This document shows, piece by piece, positions 19,345 to 23,824 of a stretch of DNA of 64,000 bases. The stretch is from Dehalococcoidia bacterium (GTDB lineage Bacteria; Chloroflexota; Dehalococcoidia; UBA2979). The translations under genes were made by a program, and so were the position numbers. The notes beneath the pieces are model-generated. The model was given only the letters and a program-made list of their open reading frames with translations, made no database searches and was not told where the DNA came from. The stretch covers positions 869,358-933,357 of the forward strand of contig OZ219872.1 of the NCBI GenBank assembly GCA_964291495.2. Direction: 5' to 3'. How positions within the stretch are numbered: position 1 is the first letter of the stretch; every line of letters begins with the position of its first letter.

Positions 19345-20190
19345 CTAGAAGATGAGGTTCGTGAGCCGCTGGCGGTAGCGGCGCGTCAACTCGGCGCCGT
19401 CGCCCAGCAGCGTGAAGGCGTCCAGCATGCGCAGCCGCCCGCCGTCGTCGGCGACCCCGCGGTCGAGTCGCACGGTCGCCAGCAGGTGCTCGAGGGCGTC
19501 CTGCCACTCACCCGCCGCCGCCAGCAGGCAGCCGAGCCGGTAGTGCGCCTCGGCGTCGTCCGGGTTCGCCTCCAGCCTCGCCTCGAGGGCCTCGCGCGGC
19601 TGGTCCCCGGCTTCGTCGCGAAACGCGAGCCGCGCGAGGACGCGCGCGGCGGCGGGGTCGCCGGGAAAGCGTGCGGCCAACTCGCGGGCGCGGGCGACCT
19701 CGCCCTCATCGAGCAGGATCGCGGCGAGCGCCGCCGAGGCGCCGCGATGGTCGGGATCCTGCTCCAGCGCGTGCTCCAGGTGCAGCCGCGCGGCGCCCGG
19801 CTGGTCCATGCGCAGCGCGTGCTCGGCGGCGGCGACGGCCTGGTCGGCGGCGCTTGGCACGAGCGAGTCGAAGAACCCTCGGACCTGCGGCTCGGGGAGC
19901 GCGCCGACGAACTCGCTCACGACCTCGCCGTTGTGGAAGGCCTTGACCGCGGGGATGCCCTGCACCTGGTAGCTGGAGGCCACGCCGGGGTTCTCGTCGA
20001 CGTTGATCTTGACGAGCTGCACCTCGCCAGCGCGTTCGTAGGCGATCGTCTCGAGGGTGGGGCCGAGCACGCGGCAGGGACCGCACCAGGGCGCCCAGAA
20101 GTCGACCACCACCGGCAGCTGATGTGAGCGCTCGATTACGTCCGTCGCGAACGTCGCGTCGCTCGCCTCCAGCACCGCCCCCGCCGTCAT
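19345..20190 (-). CDS. cnoX: Thioredoxin-TPR chaperedoxin (CnoX/YbbN family)
   Basis: VDFWAPWCGPC followed by TPR region ending YRQRLTNLIF. Confidence 0.88.
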   Translation of the reverse strand: MTAGAVLEASDATFATDVIERSHQLPVVVDFWAPWCGPCRVLGPTLETIAYERAGEVQLVKINVDENPGVASSYQVQGIPAVKAFHNGEVVSEFVGALPEPQVRGFFDSLVPSAADQAVAAAEHALRMDQPGAARLHLEHALEQDPDHRGASAALAAILLDEGEVARARELAARFPGDPAAARVLARLAFRDEAGDQPREALEARLEANPDDAEAHYRLGCLLAAAGEWQDALEHLLATVRLDRGVADDGGRLRMLDAFTLLGDGAELTRRYRQRLTNLIF

Positions 20191-20337: not shown

Positions 20338-21189
20338 ATGCGCTTCGGAGTGACGGTCGACTTCAACGAGCAGCCGGTGACCTCGCCGGAGTTCCTCGCC
20401 GGGTTCGCCCAGGCCGCCGAGGACTGCGGCTTCGACACCCTCTGGACCAGCGACCACGTCGTGATCCCGCAGGACCACAGCTCGGACTACCCCTACGCCG
20501 AGCGCATGCCCTACGAGGAGGCGCCGATCCCCGACCCGATCGTGACGCTCACCTTCGTCGCCGCGAAGACGAAGACCATCCGCCTCGGCACCTCGGTGCT
20601 GGTGCTGCCGCAGCGCAACCCGGTCGTGCTCGCCAAGCAACTCGCCTCGCTCGACGTCTACTCCGAGGGCCGCGTCGACCTCGGCATCGGCGTGGGCTGG
20701 CTGCGCGAGGAGTTCGAGGCGATCGGCGTGCCCTGGGAGCGCCGCGGCAAGCGCACGGACGAGTGCATCGAGGCAATGCGCGCGCTCTGGACGCAGTCGG
20801 TCGCGAGCTACGAGGGCGAGCTGGTGCGCTTCTCCAACGTCGTCTGCGACCCCAAGCCCGTCCAGCCGGGTGGGGTGCCGTTCATCATCGGTGGGCACTC
20901 GATGGCCGCGGCGCGGCGCGCCGGGAAGTATGGCAGCGGCTTCTTCCCGCACGTCTTCGGCCGCGCCTGGCACGAGCTGATCGCGGAGGCGCGACGGACC
21001 GCCGAGGCGCACGGCCGCGACCCCGACGAGGTCGAGATCAGCGCCGGCGTGCCGCCGGAGCTGGAGCTGGCGCAGCGCCTCGGGGAGCTCGGCGTCTCGC
21101 GCCTGAACATCCTGATCACGGACCCGGACGTGCCGTCCGCGCGGCGAACGCTGGAGCGCATCTCCCGCGACCTGATCGCGCGCATGTAG
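20338..21189 (+). CDS. LLM-class (putative F420-dependent) oxidoreductase
   Basis: GFDTLWTSDHVV, RLGTSVLVLPQRNPVVLAKQLASLD..S.GR..LGIGVGWLREEF. Confidence 0.92.
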   Translation: MRFGVTVDFNEQPVTSPEFLAGFAQAAEDCGFDTLWTSDHVVIPQDHSSDYPYAERMPYEEAPIPDPIVTLTFVAAKTKTIRLGTSVLVLPQRNPVVLAKQLASLDVYSEGRVDLGIGVGWLREEFEAIGVPWERRGKRTDECIEAMRALWTQSVASYEGELVRFSNVVCDPKPVQPGGVPFIIGGHSMAAARRAGKYGSGFFPHVFGRAWHELIAEARRTAEAHGRDPDEVEISAGVPPELELAQRLGELGVSRLNILITDPDVPSARRTLERISRDLIARM

Positions 21190-21264: not shown

Positions 21265-21549
21265 ATGGCAGTGGCATTCGACACGCTGAAGGCAGCCACC
21301 CAGCTCCAGGAAGCAGGCTTCCGGGAGACGCAGGCGCACGCCCTCGTCACCATCCTTGCCGAGGTAGCGAACGAAACTCCGGGGGAAAGACCGAGTTCGA
21401 CAAGCTCGAGCCCTCGCTGGGGACGCGCAGAGTGCGCCGCTCTGTGCGCCGAGATGCGAGTCATGAAGCGAGACATCATCATCCCGCTCGGGAGGCTCTA
21501 CATCGTCATGACCGGGCTCATCGTCGCCGCCACCAGCGTGTTCGGCTAG
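21265..21549 (+). CDS. CCDC90/DUF1640-like small coiled-coil membrane protein (possibly degenerate)
   Basis: AFDTLKAATQLQEAGF..QAHALV head motif and C-terminal TM helix; atypical middle segment. Confidence 0.65.
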   Translation: MAVAFDTLKAATQLQEAGFRETQAHALVTILAEVANETPGERPSSTSSSPRWGRAECAALCAEMRVMKRDIIIPLGRLYIVMTGLIVAATSVFG

Positions 21550-21603
21550 CAGGCCGCGCCAACCCCACACGTCGCGCTCGCACCGCCCCCCGCCGACGGC
21601 GGG

Positions 21604-21912
21604 CTAGCCGTGCTGTCAGGTCGGCTGATGGCGGTGGTCGGCGGAAACCGTGAAGCGGCGCCAGAAGAACAGGAAGCGCTCCGCATCGACCCTCACCGCG
21701 CTCGCCCACTGCAGCAGCGCGGGCGCGACGTGGACCGTCAGGTCGCGGTGCCGGACGGTTTCGTAGCGGGTGAGGTTCTTGCCCTTGAGGTAGGTGTCGA
21801 CCGGCACATCGAGGACGCCTCGTCAGCCGAGCGGGCGAATGAAATCGAGCGCCAGCTCGCCGCCCCGGCGCCGCGCCAGCTCGGCCGCCTCAGCCGTGAT
21901 CTCGATCTCCAT
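21604..21912 (-). CDS. Candidate selenoprotein with two in-frame UGA codons (HesB/CC-Se-motif-like N-terminus, C-terminal HxHxxxUxH)
   Basis: GAGGG RBS, ATG 21912; MEIEITAEAAELARRRGGELALDFIRPLG-UGA(21825-21823)-RGVLDVPVDTYLKG...DHRHQPT-UGA(21618-21616)-QHG-UAG; hairpins with GU-containing loops after both UGAs. Confidence 0.72.
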
Positions 21913-21935
21913 GCGGCCCTCGGGGGTCCGTCGCG

Positions 21936-22835
21936 TCAGCCCGACTTGGCCTCGGCAAGGTAGTCCTCGCCGAAGCGGCGCATCAGGTCCGGCGCGTCGA
22001 GCAGCTCCCTCGGGTGCAGACCGACGATCGCGTGATCGACGCCCGCCTCGCGGGCCCGCCCCAGCCGCTCCCGCACCTGCTCCAGCCGATCGCTCGCGAG
22101 GAGCGCAATGCCGGTCATCGCGATCACGAGCGCGTCGGGGTCGCGCCCGGCGCGCTCGGCCGCCTCGCGGGCGGGTTGCATCGCCTCCCCGGCGTTGTCG
22201 AGGTAGTTGCCGTGCGTGAGCCAGCCGTCTGCCATTTCGCCGATGCGGCGCATCTGCTGCGGGCTGTCGCCGCCGATCCAGATCGGCACGTGACGCGGCG
22301 GGTGCGGCCGCGAGGTCCAGCCGTCGACCTCGTAGGTGTCGCCCTCGAAGCCGTCGACCCAGTCCTCGGTCCAGAGCTTTCGCGTCAGCTCCAGGCTCTC
22401 CTCGAAGCGCGCGCCGCGGCGGTCCGAGGGCATGCCGAGCACCTCGAACTCCTCCTTCGCCCAGCCCATGCCCGCGCCGAGGATGAAGCGCCCGCCGGCG
22501 AGGTGGTCGAGCGTGGCCATGATCTTCGCGTGCAGCACCGCCTGCCGCATGTTCAGCACCAGCACCGCCACGCCGAGCTGCACGCGGCTCGTCGCGCCCG
22601 CGACGAACGCCAGCTCGGTCAGCGGCTCCAGCAGCGAGGCGTCGATGTGCACCCGGCCCGGCAGGTTGCCGTCCGCGCTGTACGGGTAGCGCGAGCGGTA
22701 CTCGCGAGGGAAGACGACGTGGTCGTTGGTCCAGAGCGAGTCGAAGCCGGCCTCCTCGGCGGCGCGGGCGTGGCGCAGCACCACCTCGCGGGTGGCGCGA
22801 TCGCCGGCCTGGGGGAGCAGGATGCCTACGTCCAC
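21936..22835 (-). CDS. LLM-class (putative F420-dependent) oxidoreductase
   Basis: GFDSLWTNDHVV, QLGVAVLVL, ATLDHLAGGRFILGAGMGW, PIWIGG. Confidence 0.92.
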   Translation of the reverse strand: MDVGILLPQAGDRATREVVLRHARAAEEAGFDSLWTNDHVVFPREYRSRYPYSADGNLPGRVHIDASLLEPLTELAFVAGATSRVQLGVAVLVLNMRQAVLHAKIMATLDHLAGGRFILGAGMGWAKEEFEVLGMPSDRRGARFEESLELTRKLWTEDWVDGFEGDTYEVDGWTSRPHPPRHVPIWIGGDSPQQMRRIGEMADGWLTHGNYLDNAGEAMQPAREAAERAGRDPDALVIAMTGIALLASDRLEQVRERLGRAREAGVDHAIVGLHPRELLDAPDLMRRFGEDYLAEAKSG

Positions 22836-22879: not shown

Positions 22880-23824
22880 CTAGCGAAGCAGCGCCGAGCC
22901 CGGTGGCACATGGTGTTCGATCTCGCCCTGATGGTCGAGCAGGATCACCCGGGAGCGGAAGCGCCAGACGCCGTCGACGCGCTCGAACGCGTCGTGGTAG
23001 CGGCCGGCCGCGATGATCTGAATCGGCAGCTCGCGGGTCGCCAGCGTGACGGTGAAGTAGGAGCGCGCCGTCGCCGTCCCGGCGTCCTCGTCCGGCTCGA
23101 TCAGCACGTTGGTCGTGACGTGCTTCGTGCGCGGGCTGCCGTCGTGCAGGCGGAAGCTGCTGCGCAACGCCTCGGCCAGCTCCGGTCCGCCCAGCGGCGT
23201 CCCCTCCACCCCGTGCTGCCGCCCGCCGTGCGCGAAGACCTCACCGGCCCCCTCGAAGTCGCCGAGGTCGATCCGCTCCGCGTAGGTGAAGATCAGCGTC
23301 TCGACCGCTGCGTGGACCTCCTCGGGGACGGGCATCGGCGGCACGTCCTCGAGCGGCGGCCCCAACACCTCGATGTCGTACGGCAGCTCGCCGATCTCGT
23401 AGCCCCGGATGTGCTGCGTGAGGTCGCCGCGCGTATCGAGCATCGTGAGGCGGTCCGTGAACCACCACCCGCCGTCGATGCGCTCGAACTGGTCGTAGTA
23501 GCGGCCGCTGCCAAGCAGTCGCAAGCGCATGGTCGGCGTCGCCTGGAAGAGCGTGAAGTAGGAGCGTGCGCGGGCCGTACCGGCCTCCTCGTCGACGTCG
23601 ATCATGATGTTGGTCGTCATGTGGCGCGTGCCCGGCGAGCCGTCGTGCAGGAGGAGCCGCCGCTTGCGATTCTCGGCCATCTGCGCGCCGGCGTGCGCGG
23701 CCCCGAGGCTCGAGCGGAACGGCCCATGCGTGAAGATCTCGCCGACCGCGTCGTGGTCGCCGAGATCGGTGAAGCGCGCGTAGCGCAGCATCACGTCGCG
23801 GATCTCGTCGCGGCTGTCCGTCAT
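22880..23824 (-). CDS. Tandem SnoaL/NTF2-like double-domain protein
   Basis: Two repeats of YA..D.GD...F...HDGSP.T.H.TTN..I..DE.AGTA.ARSYF...GRY.D.FER.DG.W.F. Confidence 0.9.
   Translation of the reverse strand: MTDSRDEIRDVMLRYARFTDLGDHDAVGEIFTHGPFRSSLGAAHAGAQMAENRKRRLLLHDGSPGTRHMTTNIMIDVDEEAGTARARSYFTLFQATPTMRLRLLGSGRYYDQFERIDGGWWFTDRLTMLDTRGDLTQHIRGYEIGELPYDIEVLGPPLEDVPPMPVPEEVHAAVETLIFTYAERIDLGDFEGAGEVFAHGGRQHGVEGTPLGGPELAEALRSSFRLHDGSPRTKHVTTNVLIEPDEDAGTATARSYFTVTLATRELPIQIIAAGRYHDAFERVDGVWRFRSRVILLDHQGEIEHHVPPGSALLR

Follow-up and report, generated by a model that had tools for sequence, protein, structure and literature searches.

The locus described here raises the question whether a short reading frame that is interrupted twice by TGA can encode a single protein, and what kind of protein this would be. 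It lies in a stretch of 64,000 nucleotides from a Dehalococcoidia bacterium (Chloroflexota; UBA2979 in the GTDB lineage; assembly GCA_964291495.2, contig OZ219872.1, positions 869,358 to 933,357 of the forward strand), referred to in its whole length as the window. The frame occupies positions 21912..21604 of the window on the minus strand and has 102 residues when its two in-frame TGA codons, codons 30 and 99, are translated as selenocysteine (Sec, U). We consider it highly probable that the gene encodes one 102-residue protein with Sec at both positions (U30 and U99), which adopts the fold of the A-type iron-sulphur (Fe-S) carriers and likely holds a metal or cluster site.

The gene (21604..21912) opens with ATG at 21912..21910 and closes with TAG at 21606..21604. 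A Shine-Dalgarno-like GAGGG, recognised by direct reading of the sequence, is located at 21917..21921 on the same strand, four nucleotides (21916..21913) ahead of the start codon. From the ATG, the frame runs through 29 codons (MEIEITAEAAELARRRGGELALDFIRPLG), the first TGA (UGA1, codon 30, 21823..21825), 68 codons from RGVLD to DHRHQPT, the second TGA (UGA2, codon 99, 21616..21618) and the three codons Q100-H101-G102 (21607..21615), which are translated only upon read-through of UGA2. The original prediction had proposed this ribosome-binding site, the ATG at 21912 and a 102-residue frame with UGA at codons 30 and 99, all of which is borne out by the sequence and its translation. UGA1 is embedded in the motif DFI-x-P-(L/I/V)-(G/S)-U-x-G and UGA2 in the tail H93-x-H95-x-P-T-U99-x-H101, and homologues have the same layout. 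The sole part of the gene that appears in a listing of open reading frames (ORFs) under genetic code table 11 is the stretch between both TGAs, as a 63-aa ORF at 21616..21807. In a scan for terminators, the only terminator-like match, a 5-bp stem followed by ATTTCATT at 21846..21859 (minus strand), falls within the N-terminal 29 codons and is probably due to chance.

The host genome, which comprises 8 contigs with 3.08 Mb and 71% G+C, contains selA, selB, selC and selD, the four genes whose presence was to be checked according to the original prediction. The tRNA-Sec with the anticodon tca reaches 77 bits against a cut-off of 47, and the profile matches for SelB (301.7 bits), SelA (523.6 bits) and SelD (368.3 bits) also exceed the curated cut-offs. 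The selD gene is located outside the window (contig C5, 1608812-1609747) and has its own in-frame TGA at ...SCGG-U-AGKLG; the selenophosphate synthetase of this organism is apparently itself a selenoprotein. Elsewhere in the genome, UGA is a normal stop: among 1578 long ORFs with high G+C content at the third codon position (GC3), 817 end with TAG, 661 with TGA and 100 with TAA.

Homologues were collected from several sources. A six-frame search of 61 related genomes, including that of the window, found the gene in 15 genomes at 16 places, 15 of which have both in-frame TGAs, and the sixteenth is a weak match (33% identity, E-value 0.00115). Both TGAs are shared by 12 species-level genomes of the genus, with protein identities of 83-98%, and three other genera also carry the gene (57-61% identity). 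Scanning one genome per species yielded 35 loci with 44-95% identity in metagenome-assembled genomes of Dehalococcoidia/Chloroflexota and of Acidimicrobiia; all of them have TGA at codon 30, and codon 99 is TGA in 33 and TGC in two. A metagenome scan seeded by proteins with cysteine (Cys) at position 99 added 80 further loci. Three of the resulting 115 loci (L038-L152) do not match the pattern used, and 98 non-identical entries were counted, which are related to one another, so that the counts derived from them are not independent. One genome (G017) has two copies of the gene on contigs C3 and C4 (L030 and L036); they score the same, are 84% identical to the query and represent either a duplication or assembly redundancy.

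Selenoprotein UGAs are generally found opposite Cys in homologues, and this correspondence exists at both positions, where the original prediction had called for Cys or TGA. At position 30, TGA is present in 97 of the 98 non-identical loci, the full-length relatives of about 100 aa (P0003-P0007, P0011 and P0016) have Cys, and hhalign places U30 over the first Cys of the CC motif in the protein P0075. Position 99 divides the 87 loci with a canonical tail into 62 with TGA (Sec/Sec) and 25 with TGC (Sec/Cys). The other 11 of the 98 entries do not show the exact tail pattern (contig ends, longer spacer or divergent tail), yet U-x-H is kept behind a longer spacer in L103, L119, L143 and L152. Behind codon 99, Sec99 and Cys99 genes alike continue with a variable codon and then His (CAC or CAT), followed by the stop immediately or one codon further in nearly all cases, and two to three codons further in two Cys99 loci; 41 of 63 Sec99 relatives terminate exactly as U-x-x-stop. 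In all 19 aligned Cys99 proteins, which end in ...HxHxxxCxH, the three His and the Cys of the tail do not vary, and the two Cys99 loci of the genome scan finish in ...HGPT-C-R-H-stop (L067) and ...HGPA-C-T-H-stop (L068). Both UGAs have the classical Sec/Cys counterpart. In a quick tree of 85 rows, calculated with position 99 left out, about six changes between Sec and Cys are needed, although well-supported branches force only one; a Sec99 clade (L083, L092, L097 and L098; Shimodaira-Hasegawa-like approximate likelihood ratio test support of 95) is nested within Cys99 rows.

In the protein databases, the family is present mainly in pieces. A profile search of 1.84 billion representative proteins resulted in 74 matches at E-values up to 0.001, most of which are fragments of 62-69 aa starting with MSVDTYL, i.e., the ORF past UGA1, and where a fragment extends to the profile end, it closes with ...HxHxxxCxH. 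Similarly, 21 of the 23 close public database matches (P0077-P0097) are fragments of 62-66 aa that begin past the first UGA. Because public gene calls hold almost only such fragments, ordinary annotation misses the protein. Some of the fragments carry the precomputed Pfam label PF28096.1, and the family model behind this label may derive from truncated gene calls.

The bacterial selenocysteine insertion sequence (SECIS) is described as a hairpin with an apical loop of 3-9 nt, a stem of 4-16 bp, a G in the first two loop positions, a spacing of 16-37 nt and a minimum free energy (MFE) of at most -7.5 kcal/mol (PMC13188914). All of these features are found after UGA2, where SECIS 2 (21580..21613, minus strand) consists of the apical hairpin CCCGCC-GUC-GGCGGG (21603..21589) and an outer GCAC/GUGC helix (21613..21610 with 21583..21580). 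The 6-bp stem is formed by 21603..21598 and 21594..21589, the GUC loop at 21597..21595 follows UGA2 at a distance of 18 nt, and the MFE amounts to -24.4 kcal/mol. The apical hairpin begins 12 nt past UGA2 and, being entirely downstream of the TAG stop, belongs to the 3' untranslated region (UTR). Its sequence, spacing, loop and outer helix are as originally described, and in RNAfold it is part of the MFE structure of the 48 nt after UGA2 (z -1.27).

The conservation of this hairpin was evaluated with a strict test, which requires at least 5 perfect bp, a loop of 3-5 nt, a G in the first two loop positions and a spacing of 16-24 nt. It was passed by 55 of 63 Sec99 genes as opposed to 3 of 23 Cys99 genes. 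For comparison, a hairpin whose stem has at least 6 bp and whose loop, at +16..+24, contains GT occurs after 13 of the 661 ordinary TGA stops (2%). The loops of the relatives are mostly GTC, GGTC, GTT or GGT, and the stems differ by clade in at least seven sequences with pairing and position kept: CCCGCC, CGAGCC/GGCTCG, GGAGCACC/GGTGCTCT and GGTGCCC/GGGCACC, and further CGCCG/CGGCG, GCGTCGC/GCGACGC, TCCGGCC/GGCCGGA and AGGGCCGCC/GGCGGCCCT. The divergent hairpins were misaligned by MAFFT, and a covariance model and a hairpin finder applied to each sequence were used instead. In the alignment fitted to this model, 13 cells of the UGA2 helix are double-changed compared with 7.5 +/- 1.8 after shuffling, and only 1 of 500 shuffles reaches 13.

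Two other identities of the UGA2 hairpin were considered and rejected, namely a genomic repeat, as the 8 occurrences of the 13-nt core in 3.08 Mb have unrelated contexts, and an intrinsic terminator, which was not called here, no T run being present downstream. An Rfam scan of 21450..22000 at E-values up to 10 returned no SECIS family and only chance snoRNA and miRNA rows. In 27 of 63 Sec99 relatives, the real stop is itself a TGA, two to three codons past the Sec codon (e.g., L057:1792-1803, L059 and L061). The two UGAs of these genes, 6-9 nt apart, must therefore be decoded differently, and the second UGA of such pairs falls short of the minimum distance to the hairpin, which is 16 nt in the SECIS model.

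The hairpin after UGA1, SECIS 1 (21791..21810, minus strand), is located within the coding region at codons 35-41. Its core GUGCC-GGUC-GACAC (21807..21794) is composed of GTGCC at 21807..21803, the loop ggtc at 21802..21799 and GACAC at 21798..21794; 20 nt separate UGA1 from the loop. The loop of the E. coli fdhF element is GGUC as well. The loop and the spacing correspond to the bacterial SECIS description, and the 48 nt after UGA1 have an MFE of -11.2 kcal/mol for a structure that lacks this hairpin. The five-position stem GUGCC/GACAC contains a C.A mismatch, so that four of five positions pair, and the wider element adds a U.C mismatch. A perfect 7-bp hairpin, AGGUGUC-GGUC-GACACCU, whose loop follows the UGA after 20 nt, is found in most relatives and is part of the MFE structure in such sequences as L058 and L064; the mismatches are specific to the genus because of two substitutions (Ser to Pro and Glu to Asp). 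The stretch GTG-(T/C)CG-GTC-GAC-AC after UGA1 is invariant in 29 aligned sequences. Among 94 non-identical genes, the third-base identity of codons 35-40 is 1.00, 0.99, 0.92, 0.97, 0.99 and 0.95, as opposed to 0.41-0.85 at other highly conserved residues, except for F24 (0.96) and the single-codon M1 and U30. These frozen synonymous sites are the sign of an RNA constraint beyond coding. A lack of hairpin conservation had been named as grounds for abandoning the original prediction; what is found are frozen synonymous sites after UGA1 and, after UGA2, stems that are compensated by clade and missing from most Cys99 genes. The other refuting conditions named with that prediction were checked as well, and all of the outcomes favour it.

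As to the nature of the protein, an AlphaFold2 model calculated from 54 sequences has a mean predicted local distance difference test score (pLDDT) of 86.9 and a predicted template modelling score of 0.77, with low pLDDT values in the tail, where the last two blocks have 72 and 56. The best Foldseek matches are SufA (2d2a) and IscA (1x0g, 1r94 and 1s98), with template modelling scores of 0.53-0.61. In a VIA-align search of 48,161 chains, the top seven are all IscA/SufA/DsrR/HesB-like with Z-scores of 8.9-5.5 (SufA 2d2a 8.9, DsrR 2k4z 8.3, IscA 1x0g 8.1 and 1r94 7.7), and the next chain has a Z-score of 3.1. Although a best Z-score of 7-8 is, according to the caution given for VIA-align, common for unmatched models, the assignment is convincing because of the clean separation of the Z-scores and the full-length coverage. 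An A-type Fe-S carrier (IscA/SufA/HesB) fold is accordingly what the model predicts.

At the sequence level, the closest family is NF041239 (CC/Se motif), which is the sole NCBIfam match of the protein and extends over residues 1-90 and profile positions 1-89 of 91; its E-value is 5e-8, and its score of 32.9 bits falls under the cut-off of 40. The relatives score 22-40 bits, the true CC-motif member P0075 scores 55.9 bits, and the hhalign probability of the family to P0075 is 97.6%. Together with the predicted fold, this agrees with the HesB-like or CC/Se-like layout of the original prediction. The protein shares with NF041239 the size of about 90-100 aa, the N-terminal layout and U30 over the first Cys of the GCCG of P0075. 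In contrast to this G-C-C-G, the window has G-U-R-G and the relatives G/S/T/A-U-x-G, so that the second Cys of the CC motif is missing, and the tail HxHxxxU/CxH with its second Sec is found neither in P0075 nor in the profile of 91 positions. NF041239 (Moor_selen_rel) has one Sec and was first predicted in Moorella thermoacetica (PMC13188914 Table 1). In Pfam, neither the read-through protein nor five relatives had a useful match. Genome searches with PF01521 and TIGR01911 find three other genes; since the genome has three ordinary PF01521 carriers, the protein is an extra specialised member of the group rather than a replacement.

Several known systems resemble the protein in part. The cluster ligands of IscA, as given in a figure legend, are Cys35 and Cys99/101 (PMC11327457). 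U30 and U99-x-H101 have sequence positions comparable to those of these ligands, with one thiol-type residue about 30-35 residues from the N terminus and a pair resembling C-x-C at about 99/101, but the tail has U-x-H after HxH instead of C-G-C, and there are two Sec instead of one. The HesB-like selenoprotein (TIGR01911) also has a Sec near the N-proximal ligand (PMC13188914 Table 1). UXX-star (NF041114 and NF041211), the HUGP/GUXX-star fusion (NF041212), MbdU (NF045648) and KCU-star (NF033934) have a Sec two to three residues before the stop, and their SECIS must therefore sit past the stop codon. Several of the families with a C-terminal Sec are two-Sec proteins thought to bind metals (PMC13188914). 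However, the protein is set apart from them by its fold, its N-terminal Sec site and its HxHxxxUxH motif, and it has no match to NF041114, NF041211, NF041212, NF045648 or NF033934 in NCBIfam release 20.0 at E-values up to 1. The family NF049953 (ribbon_DG_selen, GUxG, 172 positions) was rejected as well, because the protein does not match it and the sole match in the genome lies elsewhere with 10.9 bits.

We therefore propose the following mechanism in conditional terms. SelB-dependent insertion of Sec would take place at both sites, so that translation would need two SelB/SECIS recoding events. In the first, the GGUC-loop hairpin of codons 35-41 would recode UGA1, and in the second, UGA2 would be recoded by the GUC-loop hairpin 18 nt past it, whose apical part lies beyond the real TAG. 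The family is probably a sister group of NF041239 that gained the C-terminal HxHxxxUxH tail. By analogy with IscA, U30 and the residues H93, H95, U99 and H101 would most likely form a metal or Fe-S/Fe-Se site, probably at the interface of a putative dimer as in the A-type carriers. A bolder view, which we offer tentatively and with more doubt than conviction, is that this would be a natural selenium-ligated centre with two selenolates and three imidazoles on a carrier scaffold, widespread in marine and sediment Chloroflexota and Acidimicrobiia and with SECIS 2 wholly in the 3' UTR, where in many members it would distinguish a Sec UGA from a stop UGA at a distance of 6-9 nt.

Three other explanations of the locus have to be weighed against a protein with two Sec residues. 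Only UGA1 could encode Sec, with UGA2 as a normal stop that yields a 98-residue protein, a hairpin that serves the transcript end or its stabilisation, and an untranslated x-His-stop. This would fit the frequent use of TGA as a stop in this genome (661 of the 1578 long ORFs with high GC3), the mere three codons that follow UGA2, the public gene calls, which stop there, and the GC-rich hairpins of at least 5 bp that are found at +16..+24 after 114 of the 661 TGA stops; however, the 25 relatives with TGC at codon 99 go on to x-His-stop, H, H, C and H being invariant in 19 of them, and the TGA forms retain CAC or CAT two codons on with an in-frame stop right after. Moreover, the hairpin with a G/GU loop lacks a T run and goes with the TGA forms (55 of 63), not with the TGC forms (3 of 23), and we regard this explanation as very unlikely. 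A dual reading of UGA2, i.e., mostly termination to a 98-residue form without U-x-H, a selenium-dependent fraction with Sec, and a ratio of the isoforms that reports the selenium supply, is opposed by the strictly conserved tail and SECIS 2, which speak for the full-length form as the one under selection. In bacteria, as known from E. coli, release factor 2 competes with Sec insertion, which is often inefficient, and a truncated form would still fold, with the site three residues from the end of the protein and a tail of low pLDDT; even so, we consider the dual reading unlikely.

The remaining explanation takes the TGAs as assembly errors, the gene as a decaying pseudogene or UGA as the codon of a standard amino acid, and it is hardly credible. 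The genome is admittedly a draft of 8 contigs with 93.7% completeness and 3.68% contamination, and reads that reveal the TGAs as errors would have told against the original prediction. However, the TGAs are not errors because they recur in independent assemblies, in the 12 species-level genomes of the genus (83-98% identity) and in two phyla, Chloroflexota and Acidimicrobiia assemblies from many sources being among them. UGA as a standard amino acid is opposed by the TGA at the end of 661 likely genes and by the dedicated tRNA-Sec with selA and selB.

The two-Sec protein favoured here also has to be measured against a number of observations that weaken it, among them the relatedness of the loci, the sub-threshold NF041239 score and the caution on Z-scores given above. 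Its weakest point for the window itself is the imperfect UGA1 hairpin: the position, sequence, GGUC loop and conservation claimed for it hold, but with the C.A mismatch, one of two in the genus of the window, the stem is not the intact one described, and the hairpin is absent from the MFE structure of RNAfold (z +0.68). Single sequences deviate at both positions. At position 30, the database relative P0076 has Gly, and L138 has GGA together with a later in-frame stop; at position 99, the database relative P0086 has Arg, the tails of L113 and L114 end in C-R-R instead of C-x-H, and that of L151 is also divergent. The tally of His after position 99 is circular, as the pattern required His, and the non-circular basis for the x-His continuation is the direct reading of the locus listings, which show such exceptions. 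The covariation of SECIS 2, obtained from an alignment that was itself fitted to the model, is modest in the whole helix, with 81.2% of the cells paired compared with 75.3% in shuffles and four pairs double-changed compared with 2.5, which is equalled by 73 of 500 shuffles. With regard to the fold, scans at E-values up to 1 revealed no A-type carrier match in Pfam and none to PF01521 or TIGR01911, and a profile search of the PDB sequences gave 0 matches at E-values up to 10. Finally, no neighbour is conserved outside the genus, and the genomic context gives little functional support.

In the window, the gene is located 23 nt downstream of an apparent luciferase-like (LLM) oxidoreductase gene on the same strand (21936..22835, minus), which is preceded by a SnoaL-like two-domain gene (22880..23824, minus). 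On the other side, a second apparent LLM gene (20338..21189, plus) and a thioredoxin-TPR gene (19345..20190, minus) are found; all of these assignments are based on translations read by eye. The LLM neighbour arrangement is kept within the genus only, in 11 of the 35 genome loci. Just downstream of the gene, a 94-aa ORF lies on the opposite strand (21265..21549, plus), and some genomes of the genus have a counterpart of it with 37-77% identity. At 10 distant loci, the neighbours vary, with a DtxR-type repressor in three loci and adenosine deaminase in two, each restricted to one clade, and one case each of aconitase, class-V aminotransferase, GNAT, disulfide oxidoreductase and an AhpC/TSA protein. 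The DtxR-type repressor is metal-dependent, has a FeoA domain and is encoded directly upstream on the same strand in one clade of Dehalococcoidia (L057:15-812, L058:652-1413 and L061:590-1381). At L072, a class-V aminotransferase gene is found upstream and a DUF3179 gene downstream. DUF3179 has known Sec forms. The DtxR-type repressor and the single aconitase, class-V aminotransferase and MerR genes hint at metal or Fe-S biology in an arrangement that is not conserved.

To place the protein in the context of the known selenoproteins, the two-Sec HxHxxxUxH form was compared with Table 1 of a 2026 review, from whose 119 families it is absent, while the supplements may list members (PMC13188914). 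A literature search on HesB-like and two-Sec proteins in Chloroflexi/SAR202 found nothing on a two-Sec HxHxxxUxH family, though the BSepDB supplements may list members. BSepDB is homology-based on known families and lists Dehalococcoidia among the organisms richest in selenoproteins. Judged by these sources, the subfamily with two Sec and the HxHxxxUxH tail has no earlier description, yet it is a variant within known kinds, and the original view of an architecture not previously described is upheld as far as the 119-family table is concerned.

Ordinary annotation overlooks the real protein together with both of its probable ligand residues, and recognition of this protein adds a two-Sec family to the bacterial selenoproteome, in Dehalococcoidia and Acidimicrobiia. 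Genes with a SECIS beyond the stop, and those in which a second UGA serves as the stop 6-9 nt after the first (27 of 63), are natural test cases for the SECIS spacing rule. In addition, the small scaffold of about 100 residues occurs in natural Sec/Sec, Sec/Cys and Cys/Cys versions, and this series allows a direct test of the role of selenium at a metal or cluster site.

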